Shown: positions 26,717-57,430, numbered from the stretch's first letter. The stretch is 57,430 bases of DNA from Candidatus Limnocylindrales bacterium (GCA_036393495.1 DASWGY010000137.1:1-57430); one strand, 5' to 3'. Translations and numbers: made by a program. The notes: generated by a model not told the origin, from the letters alone.

Positions 26717-26763
26717 TCCGACGCCTCCGCACTGCCCGCCTGGTTGCGACGGGTTATGACAGA

Positions 26764-26780
26764 GTACGATATCGTGATAC
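26764..26780. promoter_or_regulatory. GATATC-core motif; perfect 10-bp palindrome ACGATATCGT between divergent FAD-oxidoreductase and metallophosphoesterase genes
   Basis: GTACGATATCGTGATAC. It reads TATCGT on both strands. Confidence 0.6.
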
Positions 26781-26831
26781 GACACTGACGGGTGCCCGGC
26801 CACGGGCGGCGCGACCACGGAGGGACGAGCG

Positions 26832-35971: not shown

Positions 35972-35991
35972 CGATATCGTACACCGTTATC
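35972..35991. promoter_or_regulatory. GATATC-core motif pair (GATATC, then GTTATC 13 bp later) between the AcnX operon and the divergent racemase-like gene
   Basis: CGATATCGTACACCGTTATC. Confidence 0.55.
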
Positions 35992-38153: not shown

Positions 38154-38197
38154 GAACGGCACCTCGGTAGGGGTCGCGCCGGCGCCCGGGGGCTGAT

Positions 38198-38219
38198 GAC
38201 GGATCCTGATATCGCATCC
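38198..38219. promoter_or_regulatory. GATATC / GTTATC motif pair between the PrpD-like gene and dapL
   Basis: GATATCGCATCCCGATGTTATC, with a hexamer offset of 16 bp. Confidence 0.5.
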
Positions 38220-38296
38220 CGATGTTATCATCGCCCGATCGTGGCTCAGTGGCGGCAGAATGCGTTCGCACCCACCCCGGACAGGAGGCCGATCGA

Positions 38297-39509: not shown

Positions 39510-40328
39510 GTGGCCCACTTCATCAAGTCCCACGGGCTCGGCAACGACTACCTCGTCATCGATCCCCGGGACCTTCCAGTCGAGCTGACGCCGGAGGCGA
39601 CGCGCCGGATCTGCGATCGCAATCGGGGCGTCGGCTCCGATGGCATCCTCCTCGTCGCCCCCTCCACTGCCGCTGACTTCGGGGTCCGGATCCTCAATCC
39701 CGATGGCAGCGAGGCCGAGAAGAGCGGCAACGGCGTCCGGATCTTCGCCAAGTTCCTGCGCGACCATGGCTACTCCGATCGCGATCGGTTCGTGATCGAG
39801 ACTCCCGGCGGCCTCGTGGCGGTCGAGCTCCACCGCCGCGACGGGCGCGTCGCCGAAGTCCTGGCCGAGATGGGCCGCGCTCGGTTCGACGACCTTGACG
39901 CCATCGATGTCGACGGTGGGCGGCTTGACGTCACCTCGGTGTCGGTCGGCAACCCCCATTGCGTCGTCGTCGTGCCCGACCTCGGCGCCGTCGATGTCCG
40001 GGGGCTCGGACCCAAGATCGAATCCCACCCCGCCTTTCCAAACCGGACCAACGTCCAGTTCGTCCAGGTCGTCACAAGGAGCGAGGTCCGCGCCGAGATC
40101 TGGGAGCGGGGAGCCGGCTACACCCTCGCCTCCGGCTCCAGCGCCTGCGCCGTCGCGGCGGCGTGCCATCGCCTCGGGCTCGTCGACCGGGAGGTCGCCG
40201 TGACGATGCCCGGGGGGCAGCTCCAGATCGCGATCGGCGAGGACGGGATGCTGCGGATGCTGGGACCCGTGGAGGAGGTCTGTAGCGGTGACCTCAGCGA
40301 GGAGCTCCTGGCGTCGTTGCGGGGCTGA
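39510..40328 (+). CDS. dapF: Diaminopimelate epimerase
   Basis: SHGLGNDYLVID, GSDGILLV, GNPHCVVVV and ERGAGYTLASGSSACAV include both catalytic Cys blocks. GTG start. Confidence 0.9.
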   Translation: MAHFIKSHGLGNDYLVIDPRDLPVELTPEATRRICDRNRGVGSDGILLVAPSTAADFGVRILNPDGSEAEKSGNGVRIFAKFLRDHGYSDRDRFVIETPGGLVAVELHRRDGRVAEVLAEMGRARFDDLDAIDVDGGRLDVTSVSVGNPHCVVVVPDLGAVDVRGLGPKIESHPAFPNRTNVQFVQVVTRSEVRAEIWERGAGYTLASGSSACAVAAACHRLGLVDREVAVTMPGGQLQIAIGEDGMLRMLGPVEEVCSGDLSEELLASLRG

Positions 40329-42834: not shown

Positions 42835-42888
42835 CTGGGCACCTCGCTCGGACGCGGCTGCGGTCGGGCGCTTGGCGGCATGATGTCG

Positions 42889-42906
42889 GATATCGATATC
42901 GTATAC
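42889..42906. promoter_or_regulatory. Tandem GATATC-GATATC motif between the Mo-oxidoreductase and MFS genes
   Basis: GATATCGATATCGTATAC. Confidence 0.55.
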
Positions 42907-42986
42907 CCTTCTCGAGCGTCCTCCCCGAGGCGCGGTGCTACGGTGCTGGCCGCGCTGCCTACGACGCGCTGACGAGGAGTCCGACC

Positions 42987-44231
42987 GTGGCAACGACAGA
43001 GCCGGAGGCCGGCGGCCGGATCGCGGGCGATACCGGCCCGATGATCACCGCCCGTTCGGCGATGACGTTCGTGGTCCTTCTCGGCTCGGTCAGCCTCTTC
43101 TCGGACGCGACCTATGAAGGCGGACGCAGCCTCGTCGGCCAGTTCCTCCAGCTCCTCGGCTCGAGCGCTGCGGCAGTGGGCATCGCGGTTGGCGCCGGCG
43201 AGTTCCTTGGTTATGCCCTGCGGCTCGTATCCGGGTACGCGGCTGACCGGACCGGCGCGTACTGGCGGATCACCCTGCTCGGCTACGGCATCAATCTCCT
43301 GGCGATGCCGCTCCTCGCCTTTGTCGGCCGCTGGGAGATTGCCATCGCCCTGCTCTTCATCGAGCGCATCGGAAAGGCCATCCGAAACCCGGCTCGGGAC
43401 GCGATGCTGTCCTACGCGACGAAGGAGATGGGCCGCGGCTGGGGCTACGGCCTCCACGAGGCGATGGACCAGATCGGCGCGTTCGTTGGACCGCTCAGCG
43501 TGTCGCTGGCGCTGTTCCTGCGCGGCGCCGGCAACGCTGGCCTGGCTGACTACCAGGCCGCCTTCGTTATCCTCTTCGTCCCGGCCGTGATCGCAGTCTC
43601 CCTGCTCCTCCTGGCACGACGGCTGTTCCCGCACCCTCGTGACCTCGAGAGCAAGACCCCCCGAATCAGTGCCGAGGGTCTCGGGCGGACCTACTGGCTG
43701 TTCGTCATCGCGGCAGGGTTCATCGCCGCCGGGTATGCCGATTTCGCCCTCATGGCATTCCATTTCCACGCGATCGAACTGGTATCCGACGAGGTCATCC
43801 CGTTGCTGTTCGCTGTCGGCATGGCCGTCGATGCTGGCGCAGCCCTGGTGATGGGGCGGCTCTACGATCGGTCCGGCTTCGCCGTCCTCATCGTCGCGGT
43901 GGCCCTCGGGGCGATCTTCGCGCCGTTCATCTATTTCGGATCGCTGCCGATCGTGGTCGTCGGGATCGCCCTCTGGGGAATCGGTCTGTCCGCCCAGGAG
44001 AGCATCCTGAAGGCGGCCCTCGCCGGAATCATTCCCCATGAGCGGCGGGCCTACGGGTTCGGACTGTTCGCCACTGTCTTCGGGATCTTCTGGTTCGTCG
44101 GCAGCGCCACGATGGGCCTGTTGTACGACATCGAGGTCGGTTTCCTCGTCGCGTTCTCCGTCGTGAGCCAACTCCTGGCCCTGCCGATCTTCCTGGTCAC
44201 CAGGCGGCGCCTTGCAGCCGGCGAGGCCTGA
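42987..44231 (+). CDS. MFS transporter
   Basis: About 12 hydrophobic helices and the loop motif GYAADRTGAYWR. GTG at 42987 lies 7 nt after GAGGAG. Confidence 0.8.
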   Translation: MATTEPEAGGRIAGDTGPMITARSAMTFVVLLGSVSLFSDATYEGGRSLVGQFLQLLGSSAAAVGIAVGAGEFLGYALRLVSGYAADRTGAYWRITLLGYGINLLAMPLLAFVGRWEIAIALLFIERIGKAIRNPARDAMLSYATKEMGRGWGYGLHEAMDQIGAFVGPLSVSLALFLRGAGNAGLADYQAAFVILFVPAVIAVSLLLLARRLFPHPRDLESKTPRISAEGLGRTYWLFVIAAGFIAAGYADFALMAFHFHAIELVSDEVIPLLFAVGMAVDAGAALVMGRLYDRSGFAVLIVAVALGAIFAPFIYFGSLPIVVVGIALWGIGLSAQESILKAALAGIIPHERRAYGFGLFATVFGIFWFVGSATMGLLYDIEVGFLVAFSVVSQLLALPIFLVTRRRLAAGEA

Positions 44232-44255: not shown

Positions 44256-44582
44256 TCAGGACGCCCCGACCGAAGTGGCGGGCTCGGCTTCCATGATCTC
44301 ATCGACGAGTTCTCGGATCTTCGACCGCGACTCCTCGAGCGCCTCCTGCCCGAGGTCGGTGATCCGGTAGTACTTGCGGACCTTGCCGTCCACGACCTGC
44401 TCCTCTCGAGTGAGATAGCCGGTCGCCTCGAGGTTATGGAGAAGCGGGTACAGCGTGCCCGGCGACAGGTGGTAGTCGTGGCGAGCCAGCTCGGCCAGGA
44501 ACGAGACACCGTAGATCGGACCTCGGCTCGCATGGTGCAGCACGTGGACCTTCACGAAGCCAAGGAAGAAGTCGCGGAACAT
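44256..44582 (-). CDS. PadR-family transcriptional regulator
   Basis: VHVLHHASRGPIYGVSFLAELARHDYHLSPGTLYPLLHNLEATGYLTREEQVVDGKVRKYYRITDLG is a canonical PadR winged helix. An alternative start is ATG at 44621. Confidence 0.85.
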   Translation of the reverse strand: MFRDFFLGFVKVHVLHHASRGPIYGVSFLAELARHDYHLSPGTLYPLLHNLEATGYLTREEQVVDGKVRKYYRITDLGQEALEESRSKIRELVDEIMEAEPATSVGAS

Positions 44583-44698
44583 CCGATTTGGCCTCGGATG
44601 GGCGCTGGGATCAGGTGGCATTGGGCAAAGTGTACCGGGCCAGTCCACTGGACGATGCCATGCTCGCCGACGCCCACCGCCGCGCCAGTGGCCCGCCA

Positions 44699-45607
44699 CT
44701 AGTTGCCGAAGCGAGCGACCTCAGCCAGGAGCTCGTAGGTCTTCTGCTGCTCATCGGGCTCGCCAGCGGTCGACGCGAGGAAATCGGTCACGCCAAGGGC
44801 CGCATATGCCGTCAGCGCCTCACGTACGGCGTCGGCCGACCCGACCATTGCCACGTCGGCGGTCCTCGGGGAACGGTCGAGGTCGAGGATCCGTCGATAC
44901 GATGGTCGCAGCTCGTAACCGGCGAGGCTCGGCGCGATCGCGTCCCGGACGATGGCTGGATCACGCTTCGTGGCGCAGACGGGGACGCCGGCGACGATCC
45001 GCGGCGCCGGTCGACCGGCGCTTGCCGCGGCCTCGACGATCGTCGGCACGGCGACCTCGCGAAGGTACCGCGGTCCGGCCAGGAAGATGATCGTCCCGTC
45101 CGCGGCCTGACCGGCAAGCCGCAGCATCTGCGGTCCGAGCGCCGCGATGAGGACCGGTGGCGCCTCGACAGCGCCGCCGAGCGGCGAGCGGTAGCCCGTC
45201 AGGCTGAACTCGTCGCCGCCGAACGTCACGGCCTCGCCGGCCAGCAGGGGCACCAGACAGCCAAGGTATTCACGCATGTGGCGGATCGGACGCCACGGGA
45301 ATCCCTGCATGCCCTCGACCGAGAACCGATGGCCCACCCCGAGGCCGAGGACGTGTCGACCGGCGCACGCCGCCTGCACCGTCAGCGCCTGCTGGGCAAG
45401 CGCCGTCGGATGACGCTGGTAGGTTACGACCACCGCCGTCCCGAGCTCGATCTGCTCCGTTCGGGAGGCCGCCAGGGCCAGCTGGGTCAGCGCGTCGAAC
45501 CGACCGGCCGTCCAGACGGTGGAGAAGCCGTCGGCCTCCGCCTGCTCGATGCGCGGCACGACGTCGTGCGGATCGGATGAAGCCGCGACCTGCAATCCGA
45601 TTCGCAA
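44699..45607 (-). CDS. Luciferase-like (LLM class) flavin/F420-dependent oxidoreductase
   Basis: LRIGLQVAASSDPHDVVPRIEQAEADGFSTVW..., IELGTAVVVTYQRHP and LGLGVGH are typical of the LLM class. TTG at 45607 has GGAGG 9 nt upstream. Confidence 0.75.
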   Translation of the reverse strand: MRIGLQVAASSDPHDVVPRIEQAEADGFSTVWTAGRFDALTQLALAASRTEQIELGTAVVVTYQRHPTALAQQALTVQAACAGRHVLGLGVGHRFSVEGMQGFPWRPIRHMREYLGCLVPLLAGEAVTFGGDEFSLTGYRSPLGGAVEAPPVLIAALGPQMLRLAGQAADGTIIFLAGPRYLREVAVPTIVEAAASAGRPAPRIVAGVPVCATKRDPAIVRDAIAPSLAGYELRPSYRRILDLDRSPRTADVAMVGSADAVREALTAYAALGVTDFLASTAGEPDEQQKTYELLAEVARFGN

Positions 45608-45660: not shown

Positions 45661-45687
45661 ACTGATATCGGGATGTGATATCGCTGG
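45661..45687. promoter_or_regulatory. Double GATATC operator-like element between the LLM oxidoreductase and the hypothetical gene
   Basis: ACTGATATCGGGATGTGATATCGCTGG matches 57327-57353 at 21 of 27 positions. Confidence 0.6.
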
Positions 45688-45737
45688 GACGTACCACCGG
45701 TTCGTCCGACGTTTCCAACTCTGGGAGGGCTCCCGGC

Positions 45738-46208
45738 ATGCCAACCGAGATCCGGGTCACGACGGACGACAACGAGCTGTCGCTTGAACAGCTGTCTTGG
45801 GCCATGCCGGACACGAGCGTGGTGATGGTCCGAATCGGCGAGAACTGGTGGCGCTTGATTTTCAGCGCCCGGGGTGGCAACTGGCCGCTGGCCGAGTACT
45901 ACTTGCGGCGCGTCCGGAAGCTCGAGAACGTCCTCGCGACCCTGCGTCCGAAGCATGCCGAGCGGCTCGCCCGATTCCAGGAGGAGGCGCTCCCGGCCGT
46001 CGAGGCGGCGATCGCGGCCCGTGACGCCGGCGGCCTCGAATCGGCCTTCGCTGCGGCCACGGATATGGCCAACCGGATGCATGTCGAATCTGGCTATCCG
46101 TACATCAAATGGGTCCTCCCCGCAACGGCCCCGCCCGGGCTCGATCTGGGGCCCGTCGTCGCGGCGCCGGCGGACGTCGCCCACGACCACGATGACGGTG
46201 CCCACTGA
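45738..46208 (+). CDS. Hypothetical protein (156 aa), no family recognised
   Basis: GGGAGGG SD lies before the ATG at 45738. The sequence has non-artefactual composition (MPTEIRVTTDDNELSLEQLSWAMPDTSVVMVRIGENWWRLIFSARGGNWPLAEYYLRRVRKLENVL...). Confidence 0.5.
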   Translation: MPTEIRVTTDDNELSLEQLSWAMPDTSVVMVRIGENWWRLIFSARGGNWPLAEYYLRRVRKLENVLATLRPKHAERLARFQEEALPAVEAAIAARDAGGLESAFAAATDMANRMHVESGYPYIKWVLPATAPPGLDLGPVVAAPADVAHDHDDGAH

Positions 46209-46309
46209 CGGTGTCGGCCGGCCCGGCGCCTTCAGCCGCGGTGCCCAGGTCCTCGTCATGCCCTGATAGCGTCGGAGCGAACCACGAGGCGAGCCTCGGG
46301 GACGGCGAC

Positions 46310-47473
46310 CTACGAGAGTGGCCCATTGGCCGCCGAAGGCGTCGCAGCCGTGCCACTGCTCGCGTCGCGCGTTGCGGTCTTCATCGCGCCCAGCCCGGTG
46401 GATGACGCGGTGCCGACGACGTCGATGCCCGGGAGGTCGAGCTCGCGAGCCCGGTGGCAGCGGACCATCCGACCCGGCGTGACCTCCTCCCAGACCGGGC
46501 GCTCGACCTTGCAGCGCTCGATCGCGAACTCGCAACGGGGGTGGAAGTAGCAGCCGCTCGGCGGCGCGGCAGGGTTGGCGACCTCGCCAGGGAGCGGCTT
46601 GCGCGCCGCTCGCGCCCGTGGATCCGGCTTGGGTACGGAGCCCAGCAAGGCCGACGTGTACGGGTGGAGCGGCTTCCGGAAGATCACGTCCCGCTCGCCC
46701 AGCTCGACCATCTGGCCCACGTACATGACCGCGATCCGGTCGCTGATGTGCTTCACGACACTCAGGTCGTGAGCAACGAAGAGGTACGTCAGGCGGAGCT
46801 GGTCCTGGAGGCGAAGGAGGAGGTTGAGGATCTGGGCCTGGACGGAGACGTCGAGGGCCGACACCGGCTCGTCGGCGACGATGAGCCTGGGGTTGAGCGC
46901 GAGGGCGCGGGCGATCCCGATCCGCTGGCGCTGCCCGCCGCTGAAGGCGTGCGGGAAGCGGCGCATGTACTCGCCCGGCAGGCCAACCAACTTCATCAGC
47001 TCGGCGACCCGGTCGATCCGGTCCTGGCGCTGCGTCGTGCCGTTCACGAGCAGCGGCTCGCCGATGATGTCGAGGATGGTCATGCGCGGATTGAGCGACG
47101 AGTACGGATCCTGGAAGATCATCTGCATCTCGCGCCTGAGGGGGCGCATCGCGCTGCGCGGGATGGCTCCGATGTCGACGACCTCTCCGGTTTGGCGCCG
47201 GAAGAGGATCCGGCCGGCTGTCGGATCGACAGCGCGGAGGATGCAGCGCGATGTCGTCGTCTTGCCGCAGCCGCTCTCGCCGACGAGGGCCAGCGTCTCG
47301 CCCTCGCGGACGTCGAAGGCGACGTCGTCGACGGCCCTGACCTCGCCGACAGCGCGGCGGAGCAGACCGGTCTGGATCGGGAAGAACTTCTGGAGCCCCC
47401 GGACCTCGAGGATATTCTCCGGCTTCTCCATCGTCAGCCCGGCGACCCCCGGACTCGCCGCGGACGGCGTCAT
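46310..47473 (-). CDS. Peptide/nickel-type ABC transporter ATP-binding protein (OppF/DppF-like)
   Basis: Walker [11 protein letters not shown], signature [15 protein letters not shown], and the C-terminal oligopeptide-ABC extension GCYFHPRC. The ATG at 47473 overlaps the upstream stop (ATGA). Confidence 0.85.
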
Positions 47474-48555
47474 CGGGACGCCTCGGGCCTGTCCGTCGCA
47501 TCCGCCCCGATGTCGTAGAGGTGGCAGCTGGCCGCGTGCCGATCTCCGAAGCTCGTCATCCCGGGGATCACCTCGGAGCAGATGCCGGCGATGGCGCTGG
47601 CACAACGCGGGTGGAAGGGGCAGCCGGTCGGCCTGTTGAACGGATGGGGGATCGATCCGCTGATCGTCGGGAGCGCCATCCGGGCAGTGGCCGTTACGCT
47701 CGGGATCGACTGGAGGAGAGCCTGGGTGTAGGGGTGCCGGGGCTCATGGAAGATCTGGTCGACGGTTCCCTGCTCGGCGACCCGGCCCAGGTACATGACG
47801 ACGACATCGTCGGCCATCTCGGCGATGACCCCGAGATCGTGGGTGATCAGCATGATGGCCATGCCGTTCTGTTGCTGGAGTCGCCGAAGGAGGTCGAGGA
47901 TCTGGGCCTGGGTCGTCACGTCCAGGGCCGTCGTCGGTTCATCGGCAATGAGCAGCCGGGGCTCGCCGGCGAGGGCCATGGCGATCATCGCTCGCTGGCG
48001 CAGGCCGCCCGAGAGCTGCCAGGCGTAGTCCTCGAGCCGCCCCTCGGGCCGAGGGACGCCGACCATCTTCAGGAGCTCGATCGACCGCGCCCGGACGGCC
48101 GCCTTCGACAGCCGGGCATGGAGTCGAACCGCCTCATTGATCTGGTCGCCAATCGTGTGAACGGGCGAGAACGACGTCATCGGTTCCTGGAACACGAGGC
48201 CGATGTCGCCGCCCCGAATCGACCGGATAGTCCGGCCGTTGCTCGGCAGGTTCACGAGGTTCAGCCAGTCGTCCCCTCGACGGAACATGATCTCGCCGCC
48301 GACGATCTGGCCGGGTCGCTCGATGATCCGGAGGATCGACTTGGCCGTCACGCTCTTGCCACAGCCCGTCTCGCCGACGATCCCCAGGGTTCGGCCCTCG
48401 AACAGGTCGAAGCTCGCGCCGTCGACCGCTCTGGTGATGCCCTCGTCGGCGATGAAGTAGGTTCGAAGATCGCGAACCGACAGGAGCGGCGAGCCGGTTG
48501 GGCCGGCGCCGGTGGAGGGGGAGGCGTGCGTCGCCGCGGGCACCGCGTCGATCAT
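47470..48555 (-). CDS. Peptide/nickel-type ABC transporter ATP-binding protein (OppD/DppD-like)
   Basis: Walker [11 protein letters not shown], signature [16 protein letters not shown]-terminal GCPFHPRC. Confidence 0.85.
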
Positions 48556-48684
48556 CGTTCGTCCATCCTAGCCCCGACATCCAGCGGGAGGCCCATTCGT
48601 ACGTCGCCGTTGGACGCCCTCAACCCTGACCTCCGGTGGTGCGCGTCGCGACTCGTCGCCCGTGCCGGAGCTTGGGCTCGGTGG

Positions 48685-48694
48685 ACGATATCAT
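48685..48694. promoter_or_regulatory. GATATC-core motif between oppD-like and chrA
   Basis: ACGATATCAT reads TATCAT on the plus strand and TATCGT on the minus strand. Confidence 0.5.
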
Positions 48695-48735
48695 AGTCCG
48701 ACAACAGGTTGGAAACGGAATCGCGGGAGGGCGGC

Positions 48736-49998
48736 GTGTCGGACGAGGTGGTGGATCGCGACAATTCGGGGCATTCCGGGCTGACAGAAGACGTCGCCTC
48801 GCAGATGCCCCACGGACCGGCCGCGCTCCTCGAGATCCTGCTCGTTGCCCTTCGCCTGGGGCTGACCTCGTTCGGGGGCCCGATCGCGCACCTCGGCTAC
48901 TTCAAGACCGAATACGTCGATCGGCGCCGGTGGCTCGATGCGGCAGTCTTCGCCGACCTCGTGGCGATTGCACAGTCGCTGCCCGGCGCTGCGAGCAGCA
49001 AGCTCGGGATCTCGATCGGGATCCTGCGCGGCGGCCTCGTCGGTGGCATCGCCGCCTGGATCGGCTTCACCCTTCCGTCCGCGCTCGCCCTGATCGCCTT
49101 CGCGATCGGGTCCCAGGCGCTCGGGTCCGAGGCCGACGGATGGATCCACGGACTCCAGGTCGTGGCCGTCGCGGTCGTCGCACTGGCCGTCTGGAGCATG
49201 GCTCGAAGTCTCACGCCCGATCGTCAGCGGGCGACGATCGCGATCATCGCCGCTGTCATCTCGCTGGCCGTGCCGACAACCGTCACGACGGTCACCTTGA
49301 TCGTCGTCGGTGGAGTCGTGGGTTGGCGGCTGCTGGGGAGCGATGGTGAGGGCGCCGGTGTCGCCGTCCACGTACGGATCAGCCGGCGGACCGGCCTCAT
49401 CGCCGGATCCCTGTTCGTCGGCCTGCTCGTCGGCCTGCCGCTGGCTCGCTCCGCGGTCGACAGCCAGCCGATTGCCCTCTTCGACAGCTTCTATCGTGTC
49501 GGCGCGCTGGTCTTTGGTGGCGGCAATCTCGTGCTGCCCCTGCTCCAGCCGGAAGTCGTGCCACCGGGCTGGGTGACGAATGACCAGTTCCTCGCCGGAT
49601 ACGGCGCGGCCCAGGCTGTTCCGGGCCCCCTCTTCACGTTCGCCGCATTCATCGGCGCCGCGGCGGTCCCGGAGCCGAACGGCCTTGCCGGGGGCACGCT
49701 CGCGATCCTCGCGATCTTCCTGCCGTCGTTCCTGCTGACCGTCGCCGCATTGCCGTGGTGGAGCGAGCTCCGGGCTCGCCAGGACGTCCGCGCAATCCTT
49801 CGGGGGGTGAACGCCACCGTCGTCGGCGTCCTCCTCGCTGCCCTCTATCACCCGGTGGCCACGAACGCCCTCAGTGAGCCTCGAGACGCCGCGCTCGCGC
49901 TCGCCTCATTCGGGCTGCTCGCCATCTGGAAGATGCCACCGTGGATCGTCGTGGTCGCGACGGCTGCCGGCGGGGCGTTACTCGAGGCGATCGCCTGA
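48736..49998 (+). CDS. chrA: Chromate transporter ChrA (two CHR domains)
   Basis: LRLGLTSFGGPIAHLGYF, and the second half FGGGNLVLPLLQ. The start is uncertain: GTG at 48736 after GGGAGGG, the track's TTG at 48709, or ATG at 48805. Confidence 0.8.
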   Translation: MSDEVVDRDNSGHSGLTEDVASQMPHGPAALLEILLVALRLGLTSFGGPIAHLGYFKTEYVDRRRWLDAAVFADLVAIAQSLPGAASSKLGISIGILRGGLVGGIAAWIGFTLPSALALIAFAIGSQALGSEADGWIHGLQVVAVAVVALAVWSMARSLTPDRQRATIAIIAAVISLAVPTTVTTVTLIVVGGVVGWRLLGSDGEGAGVAVHVRISRRTGLIAGSLFVGLLVGLPLARSAVDSQPIALFDSFYRVGALVFGGGNLVLPLLQPEVVPPGWVTNDQFLAGYGAAQAVPGPLFTFAAFIGAAAVPEPNGLAGGTLAILAIFLPSFLLTVAALPWWSELRARQDVRAILRGVNATVVGVLLAALYHPVATNALSEPRDAALALASFGLLAIWKMPPWIVVVATAAGGALLEAIA

Positions 49999-50063
49999 TC
50001 GGTGACCTCGAACCCCGGGTCGCGGGCAGCGGCCCGGGTGGCGCCCGGGCGCTCGGCGCAAGA

Positions 50064-51383
50064 TCAGGCGCCGCCGGCCACGACCTGTCCGCCCTTGACG
50101 ACGCACTGCGGTCGGGTGAGGGCCTCGAGGTCTGACAGCGGATCGTCGGTCGTCGCGACGAGATCGGCCAGGTGCCCAGGCTCGAGGACACCCAGGTCGT
50201 CCGCTGCCCCGAGCGCTTCGGCCGCAACGATCGTGCCCGCCTGGATCGCCTGCCACGGCGACATGCCGGCTTCACCCATCTTCGCGAACTGGCCCGCGTT
50301 CTCGCCGTGCGGGAAGACTCCGGCATCTGTTCCAAAGGCCATCCGGACGCCGAGGCGCAATGCAAGGCCGACGGTCGCAACCTTGGCCCGAGTCACCTGG
50401 ACGTTCCGCTCGATGACCTCGTCCGACCAGCCGAAGGACCGTGATCTGGCATCGATCCAGGGTCCGCTGTAGAGGTCGGTGACGAGGTACGTGCCGGCAG
50501 CCGCGAGAGCCTCGAGGGCCGGCTCAGACGCATACGTCCCGTGCTCGATCGTCCGAACGCCTGCCCTCGCGGCGACCAGCATGCCCTGGCTGCCATGCGC
50601 CGCCGCCGCCACCGGTAGCCCGCGGCGCGACGCCGCCTCGACGACCGCCGCCACGAGCTCCGGTGAGAGCTCGAGACGATCCGGGTCGGTCGGCCGGGCG
50701 ACGACACCGCCACCGGTGACGATGATCTTGACGAGGTCCGCGCCTTCCCTCGCCAGGTCGTTGACGACCCGCCGCGCGTCCGCGACGCTGCCGATGATGC
50801 CCCGCCGTAGTGGGTCGCGAGCGCCGGCAGCGCCCGCCGGTCCCCGACGCGCGGTGCCGGACATCGCGCCCGGACGCGGCCCCGCTGCCGCTTCCGGGTC
50901 GGCCCCGCCGCCCGCCGCCGTGACGTAGACCCCGGCGCACAACATGCGTGGACCGGGAACCAGGCCGACCTCGATCCCATCGCGTAGCCGGATGTCCGCA
51001 AAGGCGCGGACCGTCCCGACGTCGCGGACGGTGGTGAACCCGGCGGCGAGCGTCGCTCGGGCATTGGCGACACCGTGGAGCAGGTCGAGCTCGGGCGGGT
51101 CGTCGGGTGGGGTGACGCCACCGGAGGCCACCCCTCCGATGAGATGGACGTGGCAGTCGATGAGCCCGGGCAGGACCGTGAGGGCGCTGAGGTCGAGAGT
51201 TCGGTCGTGGTCGGGCTCCGGGTCGCCGCTCGGGATGACCGCTGCGATCCGGTCGCCGTGGACGAGGATCGCCGCCCGGTCCAGGACGCTGGCAGCCCGG
51301 ACGTCGAGGAGGCGGCCGGTCCGGATGAGGACTCGCAATTCGGGCACCTTCGCCCGGCCGGGATTGGGGTCGGTGGTTGACAC
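50064..51383 (-). CDS. Metal-dependent amidohydrolase (imidazolonepropionase/prolidase-like)
   Basis: VLPGLIDCHVHL is the HxH metal motif, with later AAAHG..., IEHGT and FGTDAG blocks. GTG start after GGAGGGAG. Confidence 0.8.
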   Translation of the reverse strand: MSTTDPNPGRAKVPELRVLIRTGRLLDVRAASVLDRAAILVHGDRIAAVIPSGDPEPDHDRTLDLSALTVLPGLIDCHVHLIGGVASGGVTPPDDPPELDLLHGVANARATLAAGFTTVRDVGTVRAFADIRLRDGIEVGLVPGPRMLCAGVYVTAAGGGADPEAAAGPRPGAMSGTARRGPAGAAGARDPLRRGIIGSVADARRVVNDLAREGADLVKIIVTGGGVVARPTDPDRLELSPELVAAVVEAASRRGLPVAAAAHGSQGMLVAARAGVRTIEHGTYASEPALEALAAAGTYLVTDLYSGPWIDARSRSFGWSDEVIERNVQVTRAKVATVGLALRLGVRMAFGTDAGVFPHGENAGQFAKMGEAGMSPWQAIQAGTIVAAEALGAADDLGVLEPGHLADLVATTDDPLSDLEALTRPQCVVKGGQVVAGGA

Positions 51384-51426
51384 GCGGCCTTTGCTCCCTC
51401 CGTTCCCTGGTCGGCGATGTCAGACG

Positions 51427-51436
51427 ACGATATCGT
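51427..51436. promoter_or_regulatory. Perfect palindrome ACGATATCGT between divergent amidohydrolase and amidase genes
   Basis: The 10-mer is identical to the one at 26766-26775. Confidence 0.6.
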
Positions 51437-51486
51437 AGACTGATCGTCAGATCGCGGCGAACGCGGATCTCCGACGGAGGGCCCCG

Positions 51487-52869
51487 ATGGAGGCGTCGAT
51501 CTTCGACTCGGTCGAGGCCCAGCGGTTGGCAATCGCCGAACGACGGCTGGAGCCTGGCAGGCTCATGAGCGCCACCCTCGAACAGATCGAGCGGCTCGAT
51601 CCGACGTTGCGGTCCTTTGTCGCAATCACCGCGACGAGTGCGCGGCGCGAGGCAGACGCGGCCGATCGTCGCGCTCGCGCCAGTGAGTCGGTCGAGCCGC
51701 TGCTCGGGATCCCGTTCGGGGTCAAGGACAACATCGACGCCGCCGGCTGGCCGACAACGGCAGCCTCCAGCTTCCTGCGCTCGAACGTCGCGGCCGAGGA
51801 CGCGACGGTCGTCGCCCGGTTGCGGGCCGCTGGGGCCATTCTCGTCGGCAAGCTCAACATGCACGAGTTCGCTTCGGGCGTGACGAGCGAGAGCGAGGAC
51901 TTCGGGACCGTCCAGAACCCCTTCGACCGGGACCGGATCCCGGGCGGCTCGAGCAGCGGCAGCGCGGTCGCGGTGGCGACCGGCCAGGTCGCCTTCTCGC
52001 TCGGAACGGACACGGGTGGCTCGGTCCGGATCCCCGCCGCGCTGTGCGGTGTCGTCGGCCTCAAGCCGACGACCGGCCGTGTCCCGACCCGTGGCGTCGT
52101 GCCCTGGAGCTGGGTCCTCGATCACGTCGGGCCGCTGACCCGAACGGTGCGGGATGCGGCGCTCGTGCTCAGCTCGATCGCCGGGTTCGATGTCGGCGAC
52201 CCGGCGACTCTCGACCACCCGGTCGACGAGTACCTCGCGGGCATTGACGGTGGCGTCGAAGGCCTCGAGCTCGCGATCCCTCGGTCGTTCCTGGGCGACG
52301 TCGAGCCCGCGGTCGGGGCGATCGTGGACGACGCGATCCGGGGCCTCGTCGACGCCGGTGCCCGGCTGCATGAGGTGGACTGGCCCGAGATCGGGGCGTC
52401 CGTGGACGTCCACCGGGTCATCGTCGATGCCGATCTCGCCGCCTTCCAGCGAGACCGCTTTGGCGAGGCGCCCGAGCGTTTCAGCGCCGACCTCCGGGCC
52501 AGACTCGTGCGGGGCACGGCCCGCTCCGGCTCCGAGGTAGCCGTGGCCCGGCGGACACAGCTGGCGATGACCCGCCAGGTCGACCTGCGCCTCGCGGAGA
52601 TCGACGCCCTCGTCCTTCCAACCGTTCCGATCGTCGCCCCGCGGCGAGCGGGGCTCGACGGCGCAAGAGCCTCCGAGATGCTCGCGTCGCTGGTCCGGCC
52701 GTTCAGCCTCTTCGGGACTCCCGCGATCAGCCTGCCAGTCGGCGACGTGGCCGGCCTGCCCGTCGGCCTCCAGATTGTCACCGCCCGGTGGACCGAAGCG
52801 AGGCTGCTCCGGATCGCGCGGGCAGTCGAGCGGCAGGTGTCCTGGCAGCCCCGAACGTTCGGGACCTGA
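51487..52869 (+). CDS. Amidase-signature family amidase
   Basis: GGSSSGSAVAVATGQVAFSLGTDTGGSVRIPAALCGVVGLKPT is the amidase signature with the Ser-cisSer-Lys context. GGAGGG SD. Confidence 0.9.
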   Translation: MEASIFDSVEAQRLAIAERRLEPGRLMSATLEQIERLDPTLRSFVAITATSARREADAADRRARASESVEPLLGIPFGVKDNIDAAGWPTTAASSFLRSNVAAEDATVVARLRAAGAILVGKLNMHEFASGVTSESEDFGTVQNPFDRDRIPGGSSSGSAVAVATGQVAFSLGTDTGGSVRIPAALCGVVGLKPTTGRVPTRGVVPWSWVLDHVGPLTRTVRDAALVLSSIAGFDVGDPATLDHPVDEYLAGIDGGVEGLELAIPRSFLGDVEPAVGAIVDDAIRGLVDAGARLHEVDWPEIGASVDVHRVIVDADLAAFQRDRFGEAPERFSADLRARLVRGTARSGSEVAVARRTQLAMTRQVDLRLAEIDALVLPTVPIVAPRRAGLDGARASEMLASLVRPFSLFGTPAISLPVGDVAGLPVGLQIVTARWTEARLLRIARAVERQVSWQPRTFGT

Positions 52870-52925
52870 GATCCAGCGACGGCGAGCCGGATCGCCCGCG
52901 CCAGTAGCAGGAGGAGGTAACAGAC

Positions 52926-53333
52926 TTGACCCCCACGCTGATCGTGATCCAGTGGCTCCACGTCTTCTGCGCGATCTGGTGGTTCGGGTCGCTGCTGTAC
53001 TCGCGGTTCGTCGTCTATCCCCGCCTTCGAGCGGTCGGCGGCGACCTCGAGGCCTCGGTCCGGTCGGCCTTGACGACGGGTCGAGCGCGGATGATCACGA
53101 TCACCGTCGCTACACTGACTGTCGGGCTGGGGGCGATCCGTGGGGCGGTCGGCGGTGCCCTCGACGACCCCGCGTCGGCCTACGGCCTCACGTACCTGGC
53201 TTCGTTCGCGATCGGGGTGGCCATGATCGTCTATCTCGTCGGTGGGTGGGACCAGCCGTTCCTGAACCGCCTGTACGTCCTGGCGTTCCCGGTCATCTTC
53301 AGCCTCATGATCCTGATGCGGTTCGGCCTCTAG
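52926..53333 (+). CDS. Hypothetical small integral membrane protein (4 helices)
   Basis: TTG start lies 7 nt after AGGAGGAGG. IQWLHVFCAIWWFGSLLY plus three more hydrophobic helices. No secure family. Confidence 0.5.
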   Translation: MTPTLIVIQWLHVFCAIWWFGSLLYSRFVVYPRLRAVGGDLEASVRSALTTGRARMITITVATLTVGLGAIRGAVGGALDDPASAYGLTYLASFAIGVAMIVYLVGGWDQPFLNRLYVLAFPVIFSLMILMRFGL

Positions 53334-53408
53334 TCGATGATCGAGTCGCGGGCGGCACCAGAACCCGGGCAGGCGGGCGCCCGGGATCGGCTGGATCTGC
53401 CGAAGGCT

Positions 53409-53440
53409 GGTATCGGCTCGTGATACCATCCGCCGATATC
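53409..53440. promoter_or_regulatory. Three phased hexamers GGTATC-N7-GATACC-N7-GATATC upstream of dppB-like
   Basis: GGTATCGGCTCGTGATACCATCCGCCGATATC. The first two hexamers form an inverted repeat. Confidence 0.55.
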
Positions 53441-53487
53441 GACGGGGGAGGCTCCTTCCCGGAGGCATCGTCGAGGTCAGGGGAGCG

Positions 53488-54480
53488 ATGATTCGGTATC
53501 TCCTTCGCAGGTTCGGCCTGGCGCTCCTGACGATCTGGGCGATCTCGATGGTCGCCTTCCTGATCATCCAGCTGCCCCCCGGCGACTACATCACGACGTA
53601 CATCTCAAGGCTCGGTGAGGCCGGAACCAGCACCTCGGAGCAGCAACTCGCCATCCTGCGCGAGCAGTACGGGCTGGACCAGCCCCTCTGGGTCCAGTAC
53701 GGGAAATGGATGAGCCTCGTCCTCCAGGGCCAGTTCGGTCTGTCGCTCCTGTACGTCCGGCCGGTGGCCGATGTCGTCGGCGAGCGTCTGGCCCTGACGA
53801 TGGTGGTCTCGATCGCCGCCCTGGCGTTCACCTGGATCCTGGCGATCCCGATCGGGATTTATTCGGCGGTGCGGCAGTACTCGATCGGGGACTATGTCTT
53901 CACGATCGTCGGCTTCATCGGCCTCGCCGTACCGAGCTTCCTGCTGGCCCTGGTCCTCCTGTACCTCTCGTTCGTCTACTTCGGGGCGAACATCGGCGGC
54001 CTGTTTTCGCCCGAGTTCGAGGATGCGCCGTGGTCGGTCGCGAAGCTCATGGACCTTCTCGGCCACCTGCCGATCCCGGCCCTCGTCCTGGGCAGCGCGG
54101 GGACGGCACAGCTCGTCCGCGTCCTTCGGGCGAACCTCCTCGACGAGCTGCGAAAGCCCTACGTCACGACGGCCCGGGCCAAGGGACTCTCCGAGCAGGT
54201 CCTCATTTCGAAGTACCCGGTCCGGGTCGCCCTGAACCCGTTCGCGAGCACGATCGGCTTCGTCTTTCCGACCATCGTGTCGGGCTCGATCATCATCTCG
54301 ACGGTCCTCAGCCTGCCGACGGTCGGGCCGGTCCTCCTGGCGGCGCTGCAGGCACAGGACATGTTCCTGGCCGGCGCGATCGTCCTGCTCCTCGGCGTCA
54401 TGACGGTCATCGGAACCTTCGTCTCCGATCTCATCCTGGCCTGGCTCGACCCTCGGGTCCGGCGAGCCAGAGCCGCGTGA
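53488..54480 (+). CDS. Peptide/nickel-type ABC transporter permease (DppB/OppB-like)
   Basis: MIRYLLRRFGLALLTIWAISMVAFLIIQLPPGDY is a typical N-terminus, with the EAA-like loop YVTTARAKGLSE. Confidence 0.9.
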   Translation: MIRYLLRRFGLALLTIWAISMVAFLIIQLPPGDYITTYISRLGEAGTSTSEQQLAILREQYGLDQPLWVQYGKWMSLVLQGQFGLSLLYVRPVADVVGERLALTMVVSIAALAFTWILAIPIGIYSAVRQYSIGDYVFTIVGFIGLAVPSFLLALVLLYLSFVYFGANIGGLFSPEFEDAPWSVAKLMDLLGHLPIPALVLGSAGTAQLVRVLRANLLDELRKPYVTTARAKGLSEQVLISKYPVRVALNPFASTIGFVFPTIVSGSIIISTVLSLPTVGPVLLAALQAQDMFLAGAIVLLLGVMTVIGTFVSDLILAWLDPRVRRARAA

Positions 54481-54490
54481 GGAACGGCCG

Positions 54491-55666
54491 ATGACCCAAC
54501 TGCTGGCGAGCCTGCCGGGCGATGACCACGACGTGGGAGTGACGGCCACGGGTGCAGCCTTGGTCGAGACATCTGGAGCCGAGGAGCAGATCTCGGTCGC
54601 CTCCCAGTGGCGCCTGATGTGGTGGCGGTTCAGGAAGCACAAGCTGGCGCTGCTTGGGGCGATCGTCGTGGCGTTGTTCTACGTGGCGGCGCTCGGGGCG
54701 GATTTCTTCGCTTACTCGAACCCCTACGACTCGGGCTCGGTCCGGGCCAACGTGCCGCCTCAGCCGATCTACTTCTTCGACAACGGCGAGTTCGGCCCGT
54801 TCGTCTACGGGTTGAAGCGGGAACGGGACACGGCCACGCTCAAGCTCATCTATACAGCCGACCCGAGCGTAAAGATTCCGCTCCAGTTCTTCGCCAAGGG
54901 GTTCGAGTACGACTTCCTCGGCATCTTCCCCGCGGACGTCCACATCATCGGTCCCGTGGATGGCGCGGCCGAGGAGACGATCTACCTGCTCGGAACCGAC
55001 ATCCAGGGTCGAGACCTGTGGTCGCGGATCATGTTCGGGACCCGAACATCGCTCACCATCGGCCTCGCCGGGGTGTTGCTGAGCCTCGTCCTCGGCGTCG
55101 TGCTAGGGGGTATCTCCGGGTTCTTCGGAGGTTGGGTGGACACGCTCATCCAGCGTCTCATCGAGATCATCCGGTCGGTCCCGGTGATCCCCCTCTGGCT
55201 CGGTCTGACGGCCGCGATGCCGAAGGACTGGGACATCCTCCTCGTCTACTTCTTCATCACGATCATCATCTCGTTCATCGGCTGGACCGAGCTGGGGCGC
55301 GTCGTCCGAGGTCGGTTCCTCGCCCTCCGCCACGAGGACTTCGTGGCGGCTGCCGAGCTCGCCGGCAGCAGCACCCGGCGGATCATCTTCGTCCACATGC
55401 TGCCGCTGTTGACGAGCCACATCATCGCGGCCACCACCCTGGCCCTGCCGGTCATGATCATCAGCGAGACGTCGCTGAGCTTCCTTGGCCTCGGGCTCCG
55501 TATCCCGGCGATCTCGTGGGGGACCCTCCTTCATGACGCCCAGAACGTCCAGGCCCTCGCGATCACCCCGTGGCTGCTGATCGTTGCCATTCCGGTGATC
55601 GTCGCGATCCTGGCCTTCAACCTCTTCGGTGACGGGCTCCGCGACGCTGCGGACCCGTACGCCTGA
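54491..55666 (+). CDS. Peptide/nickel-type ABC transporter permease (DppC/OppC-like) with long N-terminal extension
   Basis: LGTDIQGRDLWSRIMFGTRTSL, the EAA-like loop FVAAAELAGSSTRRI and ISWGTLL. Confidence 0.85.
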   Translation: MTQLLASLPGDDHDVGVTATGAALVETSGAEEQISVASQWRLMWWRFRKHKLALLGAIVVALFYVAALGADFFAYSNPYDSGSVRANVPPQPIYFFDNGEFGPFVYGLKRERDTATLKLIYTADPSVKIPLQFFAKGFEYDFLGIFPADVHIIGPVDGAAEETIYLLGTDIQGRDLWSRIMFGTRTSLTIGLAGVLLSLVLGVVLGGISGFFGGWVDTLIQRLIEIIRSVPVIPLWLGLTAAMPKDWDILLVYFFITIIISFIGWTELGRVVRGRFLALRHEDFVAAAELAGSSTRRIIFVHMLPLLTSHIIAATTLALPVMIISETSLSFLGLGLRIPAISWGTLLHDAQNVQALAITPWLLIVAIPVIVAILAFNLFGDGLRDAADPYA

Positions 55667-55689
55667 GCCACACAGGGCGACCTTCGGAC

Positions 55690-56130
55690 GTGCACGGGGA
55701 CGACGAGACGGACCGGCCCGGCCGAACGCCGCTGCGGATCCCGGGGACGGATCCCGCCCCGTCGTACTCGCCCGCGATCGCAGCCGACGGCTTCGTGTTC
55801 ATTTCAGGCCAGCTGGGGCTCGACCCGGAGACCGAGGTCATGGCCGACGGCGTCGAGGCCCAGGCGGCCCAGGCCCTCGAGAACGTCGCCTCGCTCCTGG
55901 CGGTCGCGGGACTGTCGCTCTCCGACCTCGTCAGGACGACCGTCCTCCTGACCCGAATGGAGGATGGCGCGGCCGTCGCGGCCGTTTGCAGCCGCCATCT
56001 GTCCGAGCCACGGCCCGCCCGGTCGATGTATGCCGTGGCCGCCCTACCGAGGGGCGCTCTCGTGGAGATCGATGGGATCGCGATCCGGCCGTCCGCAAGC
56101 AATCGGCGCGATCGGTCGACGAGCCGCTAG
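55690..56130 (+). CDS. RidA/YjgF-family reactive-intermediate (enamine/imine) deaminase
   Basis: YSPAIAADGFVFISGQLGLDPE..., and the C-terminal PARSMYAVAALPRGALVEIDGIA. GTG start. Confidence 0.85.
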   Translation: MHGDDETDRPGRTPLRIPGTDPAPSYSPAIAADGFVFISGQLGLDPETEVMADGVEAQAAQALENVASLLAVAGLSLSDLVRTTVLLTRMEDGAAVAAVCSRHLSEPRPARSMYAVAALPRGALVEIDGIAIRPSASNRRDRSTSR

Positions 56131-57320
56131 ACGAGGTCCTCCGGCCGGATCAGCTCGACGTCGTCGGTCGGCGGCTCAAGCCGGTAGGCCGACAGGAACT
56201 TGGCGCCGGTACGGGTGCAGTCCCCGTTGCAGGGGCACTCGGGGGCGTTTACGGCATAGCTCGGCACGAAGTACTTGTGGGCAAGTTGGAGGGCCTCCTC
56301 CTCCGAGATCCCCCATGACGACCACTGGGGTCGCGACGCCTCCGCGACCTTCACGGGGTCACCGAGGCGCCAGAGCATCGAGAACCGATCCGGGACCGAG
56401 ATCCCGAGGGCCATCGCCACGATCGAGATGTAGTGACGGATCGCGAGCCGCTCGCTCGCGAACTTGCCGAGCTCCCGGGTACAGCCGTGATAGAGCGTGA
56501 CGATCGCGTCGGCGCCAGCGTCTGCGACGTAGGCCTCGAGTGCGGACTGGGCGTCGAGGTACTCCTGGGTTCCGATCGTTGCCAGTCGCGGTCCCGCGTT
56601 GTCGCACAGTCCGAGGGTGGGCGTCTCGGCAAGCCCGATGACCTCGACGCCCGGGACGCGCCGGAGCAGGTCCATCGCGACCGGCGGATGGGCATCGCGG
56701 ACGCGGTGCTCGCCAAGGTGGCCGTGGACGAGGACCTTTGTCGGGACCGACGTCTGCCATGGCGTCGCCGACCCGAGCGCGTCGAGGCGACGAATGAGGA
56801 AGGACGCCAAGCCCGTGCTCTTGAAGTCGATCCCGACCTCCGGCTCAACGACGTCCGAGAATTGCATCTCGCACGCCGAGCACCACTGGATCGCCGTGCG
56901 CGGGGCGTAGGAGGCCATGCGCTTGACCGACGAGCGGACGACCTGGCGCGCCGCGTCGTGGAGGCCGTTGTTGCTGTAGGGCTTGCCGCAGCAGAATTGC
57001 TGCCCAGCGACGGCTGCGAAGTCGACGCCGAGGGCTTCGAAGACGGCCACAGCCTCCCGCATCAGGTGCGGCGTCTGGCGAACATTGCAGCCGAAGTTGA
57101 GCAGGACGTCGACCGGCCGCTCAGGGGCGGTGTGGCGTTCTGTCCAAGCTGATTCATCGCGCGAGACCTGGAGGTGCTCGCGCTCGATCATCGTTCGGTA
57201 GAAGGCAGGGTACGCGAAATCCGTCTTGGTCGGCCCGTCCTCTGGCATGGTCGGTTCGTCGGGGTTCAGCGAGGTCACCGAGCGCACAGGAGGCCCGGGG
57301 ATGGTGGCGTCGGTTGTCAT
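56127..57320 (-). CDS. CCG-domain (HdrB/GlcF/LutA-like) Fe-S oxidoreductase subunit
   Basis: The first CCG domain is complete (NFGC...FCCGKPY...WCSAC). The second is degenerate (GLCDNAG...YHGCT). ATG at 57320 lies 7 nt after a TATCAT box, so the gene may be leaderless. Confidence 0.7.
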   Translation of the reverse strand: MTTDATIPGPPVRSVTSLNPDEPTMPEDGPTKTDFAYPAFYRTMIEREHLQVSRDESAWTERHTAPERPVDVLLNFGCNVRQTPHLMREAVAVFEALGVDFAAVAGQQFCCGKPYSNNGLHDAARQVVRSSVKRMASYAPRTAIQWCSACEMQFSDVVEPEVGIDFKSTGLASFLIRRLDALGSATPWQTSVPTKVLVHGHLGEHRVRDAHPPVAMDLLRRVPGVEVIGLAETPTLGLCDNAGPRLATIGTQEYLDAQSALEAYVADAGADAIVTLYHGCTRELGKFASERLAIRHYISIVAMALGISVPDRFSMLWRLGDPVKVAEASRPQWSSWGISEEEALQLAHKYFVPSYAVNAPECPCNGDCTRTGAKFLSAYRLEPPTDDVELIRPEDLV

Positions 57321-57326
57321 GAGATC

Positions 57327-57361
57327 GATGATATCACGATGTGATATCACTGTCCGATATC
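57327..57361. promoter_or_regulatory. Three GATATC hexamers at exact 13-bp spacing upstream of the CCG-protein gene
   Basis: GATGATATCACGATGTGATATCACTGTCCGATATC. It contains the palindromes TGATATCA and GTGATATCAC. Confidence 0.6.
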
Positions 57362-57430
57362 CAGAGTCTTGGCGCGGACGGGACGATCGTCACCTGGCCG
57401 GCGACACTGACGGAGGAAAGAAGTGCGAGA

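Follow-up and report, generated by a model that had tools for sequence, protein, structure and literature searches.

This study concerns a series of GATATC-like hexamers that recur at exactly 13-bp intervals in a 57,430-nucleotide stretch of DNA from Candidatus Limnocylindrales bacterium (the window), which constitutes an entire contig (C137) of its source assembly (2.12 Mb in 259 contigs, 75% complete) and has a G+C content of ~70%. Based upon sequence comparisons, we consider it very likely that these hexamers are the half-sites of operators for a subfamily-2, Rv3488-like PadR-family repressor, the gene of which lies within the same contig:

44256-44699, minus strand: PadR-family regulator gene (Pfam PF03551, 68.0 bits with a cut-off of 27, residues 53-123)

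A preliminary description of the window had reported phased hexamers in four regions, all of which were recovered upon re-reading the sequence. Its two 27-mers (57327-57353 and 45661-45687) do agree at 21 of 27 positions, while GATATC is present at 57330/57343/57356 and 45664/45677, GGTATC/GATACC/GATATC at 53409/53422/53435, and GATATC/GTTATC at 35973/35986. The list was correct but incomplete, as nine intergenic regions between 26.7 and 57.4 kb carry sites; the equivalent arrays that it omitted are found at 26768, 38208, 42882/42895, 48687, and 51416/51429/51442. The window contains 15 copies of GATATC, compared to 7.1 ± 3.0 in dinucleotide-preserving shuffles, and the whole 2.12-Mb assembly contains 129. 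The phasing is far more restricted than the hexamer. Exact GATATC pairs at 13-bp spacing occur three times in the whole assembly, always in the window, and no exact pairs occur anywhere in the assembly at the other spacings from 7 to 23. When up to one mismatch was allowed, all seven hexamer pairs of the assembly that are 13 bp apart mapped to C137, which adds the arrays at 42882/42895 and 51416/51429. In a sample of 201 same-class genomes, only the source genome (G000) and G167 contained an exact GATATC-N7-GATATC, and the reversed-pattern control gave 0. (Here and below, G- and L- numbers other than G000 designate the other genomes or loci compared.)

Aligned arrays from many genomes revealed the anatomy of the repeating unit. 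Inner hexamers read GATATC in five of five cases. Left terminal hexamers read nnTATC (T at position 3 in 20 of 22, G at position 1 in 5 of 22), and right terminal hexamers read GATAnn (A at position 4 in 20 of 22). Because conservation of a terminal hexamer is limited to its inward-facing half, the repeating unit, as read from these alignments, is the palindrome TATC-N7-GATA, i.e. hexamer-N7-hexamer, and its 13-bp register arises because abutting units share one full GATATC, overlapping at its centre. The extended consensus is (Y)nnTATC(R)-N5-(Y)GATAnn(R), with a purine favoured after TATC and a pyrimidine favoured before GATA in the weight matrix described below. TATC-N7-GATA occurs five times in the source genome, four of them on C137, while the other spacers from N3 to N12 occur 0-2 times each. 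A two-hexamer site, such as that at 45664/45677 (site A), is thus most simply one putative dimer operator, and a three-hexamer site, such as that at 57330/57343/57356 (site B), would be two fused putative operators (57332-57346 and 57345-57359). Judging from this arrangement, only the three- and four-hexamer arrays would imply more than one dimer. Fused units 13 bp apart are rotated by ~86 degrees relative to each other, which is about a quarter turn of the helix. The preliminary description had envisaged cooperative binding of several protomers or dimers in a tandem-operator or iteron-like style. Tandem operators do fit the register, the conservation, and the presence of a cognate PadR, but cooperative binding need not apply to a two-hexamer site, which would be the operator of a single dimer, and the comparison with iterons was mistaken. 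Iterons are direct repeats bound by Rep at a plasmid origin, and could be ruled out given that the units here are palindromic and located at nine chromosomal promoter regions. Likewise, there was no Rep or replication gene among the window genes scanned against Pfam.

The connection to PadR emerged from comparisons across genomes. When the search was extended to the whole phylum, another 25 Chloroflexota genomes, some of them small and low in GC, were found to encode a PadR ortholog at 52-67% identity. Nearly all 25 are preceded by two to four hexamers at exact 13-bp spacing, which often end at the start codon, and across Chloroflexota these arrays directly precede or overlap the promoters of the PadR orthologs. 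The same arrangement is found upstream of padR in low-GC Chloroflexota that lack the island genes. Within the 230-bp regions upstream of the 25 orthologs, a spacer of 7 accounts for 26 units, compared to 0-4 for spacers of 4-11, and the 13-bp register does not vary across phyla. The G167 PadR gene follows the array GATACC-N7-GATATC-N7-GATGTC. Its contig (VBFY01000058, a Chloroflexi metagenome-assembled genome [MAG]) encodes AsnC, LysR, and PadR regulators, of which only PadR has a close homolog in the source genome. Among the 201 same-class genomes, a PadR ortholog is present in three and the exact motif in two of these three, while the other 198 lack both. A genome-wide search with a position weight matrix (PWM) from its four regions had been proposed in the preliminary description, and we ran such a search on the source genome with a matrix trained instead solely on foreign sites upstream of PadR orthologs. 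It recovered the island sites: 11 of the 13 matches >18 bits fall on C137, which represents 2.7% of the genome (binomial 4e-16), whereas a control PWM peaked at 16.4 bits. Between 26.7 and 57.4 kb, nine of the intergenic regions have to accommodate promoters (eight divergent and one unidirectional, with genes called from third-position G+C plus Pfam), and the C137 matches reach every one of them, so each of the nine has a predicted site and up to 17 transcription units could be served. What remains in this interval is the same-strand gap between the amidase gene and P0002 (52869-52926), together with the gaps at which gene ends converge. In the weight-matrix scan, zero sites were obtained for the initial 26 kb of the window. 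The nine predicted operator regions, with their PWM scores, are as follows:

26754-26787: leftmost island site, a unit around GATATC 26768, between a DAO-family FAD oxidoreductase gene (minus strand) and a metallophosphoesterase gene (plus strand); 20.7 bits, with an adjoining match of 13.9 bits
35972-35992: unit GATATC-N7-GTTATC, between the AcnX/Ldh_2 operon (minus) and an Asp/Glu-racemase-family gene (plus); 23.0 bits
38207-38227: unit GATATC-N7-GATGTT, between a PrpD/MmgE-like gene (minus) and an aminotransferase gene (plus); 21.2 bits
42881-42901: unit GATGTC-N7-GATATC with a further GATATC at 42889, between a molybdopterin oxidoreductase gene (minus) and an MFS transporter gene (plus); 23.5 bits
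45663-45683: site A, a single unit, GATATC-N7-GATATC, with hexamers at 45664 and 45677, halfway between the LLM-PadR operon (minus) and the divergent P0001 (plus); 27.5 bits
48686-48706: unit GATATC-N7-GACAAC, between an ABC ATPase operon (minus) and a chromate-transporter-family gene (plus); 19.9 bits
51415-51448: array GATGTC/GATATC/GATCGT, between an amidohydrolase gene (minus) and an amidase gene (plus); 19.5 and 12.7 bits
53408-53441: array GGTATC/GATACC/GATATC, two fused units in the unidirectional region, 48-80 nt ahead of the ABC permease gene (ATG 53488); 18.2 and 18.4 bits
57329-57362: site B, three GATATC (57330, 57343, 57356), between the CCG gene (minus) and a gene cut by the contig end; 27.8 and 23.1 bits

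The longest-ORF starts of four open reading frames (36816-38231, 38222-39502, 40294-42993, and 42825-44231) reach into operator regions. Judged from ribosome-binding sites and ortholog lengths, better starts are likely ATG 38297 for the aminotransferase (AGGAGG), ATG 42831 for the molybdopterin (Mo) oxidoreductase, and GTG 42987 for the MFS transporter (GAGGAG).

We also examined whether the sites persist at orthologous genes elsewhere. Orthologs of the CCG gene were not found in 40 close relatives, so conservation was sought in distant genomes. There, CCG orthologs in five genomes carry GnTATC-N7-GATATC just upstream; those with the upstream motif include the Chloroflexota MAGs L002 and L004 as well as the Actinomycetota L005 (Jatrophihabitans) and L007. 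All five genomes bearing a CCG ortholog plus the motif also encode a PadR ortholog (59-75% identical), located on the contig of the CCG locus in G589, G591, and G592, and the PadR genes of these genomes, including those of Actinomycetota, are themselves preceded by sites. Sites were likewise detected at orthologous CCG, Mo-oxidoreductase/MFS, ChrA, DAO, Ldh_2, aminotransferase, ABC permease, and P0001 promoters in G167, G592, L002-L007, and L057/L058, and they persist while gene order is shuffled between versions of the island. For example, the Mo-oxidoreductase/MFS pair has a site in both G167 (78640) and G592 (1582767 and 1585416), the aminotransferase and Ldh_2 orthologs of G167 have a site at 82366 and a double site at 63583, respectively, the DAO ortholog of G592 has a site at 1601498, and the ABC permease orthologs in L002 and L006 carry xGCATC-N7-GATATC-N7-GTAAxC. 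This conservation of the arrays upstream of orthologous genes fits the tandem-operator reading of the preliminary description. Counts of the bare palindrome in three genomes illustrate the clustering:

G592: 16 TATC-N7-GATA, 13 of them within 57 kb ending beside the PadR gene; control 0
G591: 11 TATC-N7-GATA, 5 of them on the PadR contig; control 0
G167: 7 TATC-N7-GATA, 5 of them on the island contig; control 2

The largest version of the island that we observed belongs to G592, an uncultured Actinomycetota. Its contig C4 (1568307-1628717; 70 kb scanned) contains ~35 PWM sites >15 bits in ~60 kb, nearly all of which are intergenic, at almost one for each gap between genes. This stretch (L051-L054) ends beside PadR and P0001, and the region also holds CCG, Mo-oxidoreductase, DAO, ChrA, P0001, and ABC orthologs. 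JGI metagenome contigs found via P0001 present a similar picture of sites and island genes. Such comparisons suggest that the regulator, the sites, and the island genes move as a group between Chloroflexota and Actinomycetota.

The window PadR itself (44289-44651, minus strand) shares 68.6% identity with its G167 counterpart. Translation of the conserved 108 amino acids probably begins at ATG 44582; orthologs begin with MLRDFF. Among proteins of solved structure, M. tuberculosis Rv3488 is the closest relative (PDB 5zhc, E 2.6e-26, residues 40-142). PadR proteins of subfamily 2 consist of a domain of the winged helix-turn-helix (wHTH) type plus one C-terminal dimerisation helix and are ~11-13 kDa in size (PMC5728393). 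The window protein falls within this single-domain class, as its alignment to the 113-amino-acid Rv3488 (residues 6-108) runs from end to end. Its score against the Rv3488 equivalog model NCBIfam NF053635 is 108.7 to 109.2 bits, which is under the cut-off of 140; it is therefore not a member, yet this is the closest model. The signature DNA contacts of the family are Tyr20, Tyr42, and Lys67 of B. subtilis PadR. Judging from their positions, the stretches PIYG, GTLYPLLH, and VRKYY of the window PadR may be the counterparts of these residues. Two further genes flank site A:

44699-45607, minus strand: F420-dependent LLM-class oxidoreductase, first gene of the PadR operon (Pfam Bac_luciferase; TIGR03564, 283 bits)
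45738-46208, plus strand: P0001, an open reading frame for a conserved 156-amino-acid protein, divergent from the LLM-PadR operon behind site A

The LLM start would be TTG 45607, behind GGAGG. Site A heads an LLM-PadR operon, because the longer GTG frame of PadR has 1 nt in common with the LLM stop codon. P0001 has zero Pfam or NCBIfam matches, and its homologs form 48 clusters, all of them annotated as "hypothetical" and derived from Chloroflexota and Actinomycetota metagenomes. It adjoins PadR in G591, G592, and the JGI contigs. Its AlphaFold2 model is a confident four-helix bundle (predicted local distance difference test [pLDDT] 87), for which a fold search against the PDB returned nothing beyond generic four-helix bundles (E > 0.5 throughout). 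P0001 might act as the regulator's partner or sensor.

From the motif, register, conservation, and PadR linkage computed here, we infer physical binding, repression, and an effector; fused units may or may not be occupied jointly. One PadR dimer would bind one TATC-N7-GATA palindrome and thereby exclude RNA polymerase by promoter occlusion, until an effector releases it; an oxyanion or an island metabolite are our guesses for the latter. Site A would make the PadR system autoregulatory, and the predicted operators overlap -10-like TANNNT boxes. Occlusion plus autoregulation via site A is the best-supported model, because many central hexamers read GATATC[A/G]T, a TANNNT box, and because the array covers the promoter at site B. 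This promoter lies directly in front of the following gene:

56127-57320, minus strand: gene immediately behind site B for a CCG-domain protein (cysteine-rich, GlpC/HdrB-like; Pfam PF02754)

A promoter scan identified CGGACA-17-TATCAT preceded by TG on the minus strand (57356-57328, with the -10 TATCAT at 57333-57328), which is the only sigma-70-like match in 20 kb, and site B covers both its -35 and its -10. The extended -10 (TG-n-TATCAT) ends 7 nt before ATG 57320, and there is no Shine-Dalgarno sequence before this ATG within 57320-57361. Given the distance between the -10 and the ATG, the CCG mRNA is probably leaderless, with its whole predicted core promoter under the array. The L002 and L006 orthologs exhibit GATATCAT 6-8 nt before an ATG. 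On the opposite side of site B, the divergent gene truncated where the contig ends uses the same intergenic region and has a good ribosome-binding site, GGAGGAAAG, followed by GTG 57424 (57412-57430, plus strand).

Several points weigh against PadR as the regulator of these sites or limit how far the assignment can be extended. Unlike many of its orthologs, the window PadR has no array directly upstream of its own start, and its expression would have to rely on site A, with transcription reading across the LLM gene from ~1 kb upstream, or else on a promoter inside the operon. Functional transfer from Rv3488 or ChrI is weak, because the NF053635 score is under its cut-off. For the co-occurrence of PadR and the exact motif among the 201 genomes, the Fisher p of 1.5e-4 is indicative only, as related genomes are not independent. 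A different regulator could also start at GTG 57424, because the contig ends at 57430. Lastly, geometric considerations place the half-site centres of two wHTH domains on a shared GATATC only 2-5 bp apart, so joint occupancy of fused units may be sterically impossible. If so, the three-hexamer arrays would represent alternative registers rather than evidence of cooperative tiling.

Tiling does have precedents. Several dimers of Fur and of DtxR/IdeR occupy overlapping operators, whereas StbA uses direct repeats (a 9-bp repeat with an 11-bp period). AspA (pNOB8) and StbA (R388) have a PadR-like fold that assembles on repeat arrays (bioRxiv 10.1101/2022.04.29.490116; PMC5728393). Fur and DtxR belong to other families, and AspA and StbA function in segregation, unlike the window PadR. 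By analogy, the Fur/IdeR and AspA/StbA precedents make tiling plausible, although they do not prove it. A broader scenario can be built on this that we regard as speculative and rather doubtful: PadR dimers would tile fused sites as a cooperative spiral, sharing GATATC at a 13-bp offset, and a PadR that was once a CHR/MFS switch would have been recruited to a 30-60-kb island (10 to ~35 operators), which regulates itself and passes as one unit between Chloroflexota and Actinomycetota, maybe with P0001 as a partner. Cooperative spiral DNA occupancy, if true, would be a mode not described for PadR transcription factors.

Among the alternatives to PadR, the one that survives best is that the operators are bound by some other factor, such as a regulator of the AsnC/Lrp or LysR type resembling those encoded by the G167 contig, or the product of the gene cut at GTG 57424, but this too seems improbable. 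An AsnC gene does follow the CCG gene in G167, a LysR gene is present in the same G167 island, Lrp-type proteins bind multiple phased sites, and the window ends just 6 nt into the divergent gene adjoining site B. However, the source genome lacks a close ortholog of the G167 AsnC (best 37%) or LysR (32%), compared to 60-75% identity for the island proteins, and AsnC and LysR are absent from the other loci compared. AsnC and LysR were thus rejected as binders, having no close ortholog in the source genome and no linkage in other loci. The motif instead accompanies PadR orthologs even in small genomes in which transporters are the only flanking genes seen, and the island sites can be retrieved with a PWM derived exclusively from regions upstream of PadR. 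An OmpR-type response regulator of the window (11565-12452) was also dismissed as a binder, since it is located outside of the island with zero sites nearby.

A second alternative, which we consider less probable still, holds that the hexamers are mere -10 boxes of separate or divergent promoters without a dedicated regulator. Many central hexamers indeed read TATCGT or TATCAT, the palindrome TACGATATCGTA yields TANNNT on both strands, and the proximal hexamer of site B is an extended -10 located 7 nt before the ATG. The site A hexamers (TATCGG, TATCGC, TATCAG, and TATCAC), in contrast, are not TANNNT. Furthermore, a -10 needs no partner at 13 bp, yet this spacing is invariant in three phyla, and the motif is essentially restricted to 57 kb of a 2.1-Mb genome. 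In several low-GC relatives, a clear TTGACA-17/18-TAnnnT promoter overlaps the first hexamer, and extra hexamers lie downstream of it, between its -10 and the start codon; since these are downstream of the -10, the hexamers cannot all be -10 boxes. As a sole explanation, plain -10 elements were therefore rejected on the basis of the site A sequence, the fixed spacing, the extra downstream hexamers, and the genomic confinement. The preliminary description had also argued that a plain -10 would not need iteration at a fixed 13-bp register. The register and its invariance across phyla bear this out, but operator and -10 overlap here and are not mutually exclusive.

Lastly, a chance pattern, a dispersed repeat similar to repetitive extragenic palindromic (REP) elements, or a restriction-modification footprint has a negligible probability and is effectively refuted by the genome-wide pair, spacer, PWM, and clustering counts: GATATC is a common palindrome and the EcoRV site, but its 129 genomic copies are close to the ~109 estimated from 71.7% GC, which indicates neither avoidance nor spread, the sites are at promoters rather than behind stop codons, the spacers are not conserved and hence the sites are not copies of one element, and the clustering p is ~4e-16.

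Having weighed these alternatives, we compared the putative PadR operators with known systems. PadR repressors with palindromic operators are known. In B. subtilis, the operator is a palindrome in which two 6-bp repeats stand 6 bp apart; it is occupied by one PadR homodimer, which a small-molecule effector releases (PMC5728393). The B. subtilis PadR/padC system resembles the one described here in its wHTH family and its near-identical operator geometry, which is hexamer-N7-hexamer in the window. The two differ in that B. subtilis PadR is a two-domain protein of subfamily 1, while the window PadR is of the short subfamily-2 type; in the spacer, which is 6 bp (a 12-bp register) in B. subtilis and 7 bp (a 13-bp register) here; and in the half-site, which is CNTGNA versus (G/A)ATATC. 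Moreover, B. subtilis PadR controls one promoter, whereas the predicted sites here cover at least nine promoter regions, and fused operators sharing a half-site are not described for it. Rv3488 is both the closest solved relative and of the same size class, although at 108.7 versus 140 bits the window PadR is not its equivalog. A further parallel is the PadR-family gene chrI, which is upstream of chrA1 in B. cereus SJ1 and is chromate-inducible (PMC2936356). The chrI operator is not described in PMC2936356, and a literature search combining PadR, chromate, and electrophoretic mobility shift assay (EMSA) found none; a search for PadR with GATATC did not find a description of the operator reported here. 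Similar to ChrI-ChrA, PadR adjoins a CHR-family transporter in the orthologous loci L017, L021, L029, and L058. The window has its own such gene:

48709-49998, plus strand: chromate-transporter-family (CHR) gene (Pfam PF02417), a predicted regulon member by its own site

In contrast to the ChrI-ChrA pair, the window regulon spans a 31-kb island, and the window chrA is 4 kb from PadR with a site of its own. ChrA orthologs are located directly behind the PadR orthologs in L017, L021, and L029, and the window ChrA is 61-63% identical to those of L017 and L029. In other Chloroflexota, PadR orthologs are followed by an MFS, CHR (ChrA), or TauE transporter. Outside of the window, CHR is the commonest partner of this PadR clade. 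It appears that the ancestral core consisted of PadR plus a transporter (CHR/ChrA, MFS, or TauE).

Similar 13-bp arrays of TATC-containing hexamers are also found on plasmids. In the padR-chrA locus of Hydrogenophaga pBPS33-1 (L049, 2465-2498), the PadR is 57.6% identical and AATATC-N7-AATATC-N7-GATACA spans the padR start. A more distant enterobacterial chrA-padR module (PadR 40% identical) is linked to class 1 integrons and found on enterobacterial resistance plasmids (>1,800 records); overall, PadR homologs are present on 1,893 plasmid records of the collection searched. On the E. coli plasmid NZ_MG557999.1 (L050, 1207-1245), this module is beside sul1 and IS6100 and has a 13-bp tandem, TATATCGAATTTC / GTTATCGAATTTC, ~40-70 bp upstream of chrA, while the enterobacterial tandem upstream of chrA is given as TATCGAATTTCG. 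Because the Hydrogenophaga and enterobacterial modules both carry 13-bp arrays, the 13-bp TATC register appears to reach as far as Proteobacteria and to be a property of a wide PadR clade. In the literature that we searched, we did not find descriptions of the operator of this clade, of the fused 13-bp architecture, or of an island-wide regulon that is portable between phyla. The present analysis provides a concrete predicted operator, TATC-N7-GATA in a 13-bp register, for a widespread and unstudied PadR clade. It would also place an island of up to 17 transcription units under a PadR protein, which is usually a switch for a single operon. The sites define where an uncharacterised island of catabolic and transport genes begins and ends in uncultivated bacteria and which genes belong to it (AcnX/Ldh_2, the CCG protein, Mo-oxidoreductase, amidases, a peptide-type ABC transporter, and the CHR transporter), and therefore narrow the search for its substrate and effector. 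The fused-operator layout would offer a clean system for determining how many wHTH dimers share a palindromic half-site.

A few minor observations were made elsewhere in the source genome. One PWM match (C134:2946) is inside a long open reading frame and is probably due to chance. Another (C211:2906-2926, 25.1 bits) is a perfect 10-3-10 palindrome, ACTATATCGC-GTT-GCGATATAGT, which coincides with the start of a gene resembling those for membrane proteins; ~100 bp away is a divergent ArsR-family gene bearing its own palindrome, TGCAAGTAACTACTTGC. For the 10-3-10 palindrome, the binder may be PadR or another factor. Finally, a further PWM match (C225:7203) falls in an ATCGAT-rich pair of repeats, GATAATCGATTGTCGATAAC and ATCGATGATCGATGATAC (C225:7203-7330), between divergent genes and ~3.3 kb from a GntR/FadR-type regulator gene; this pair probably belongs to another regulon.

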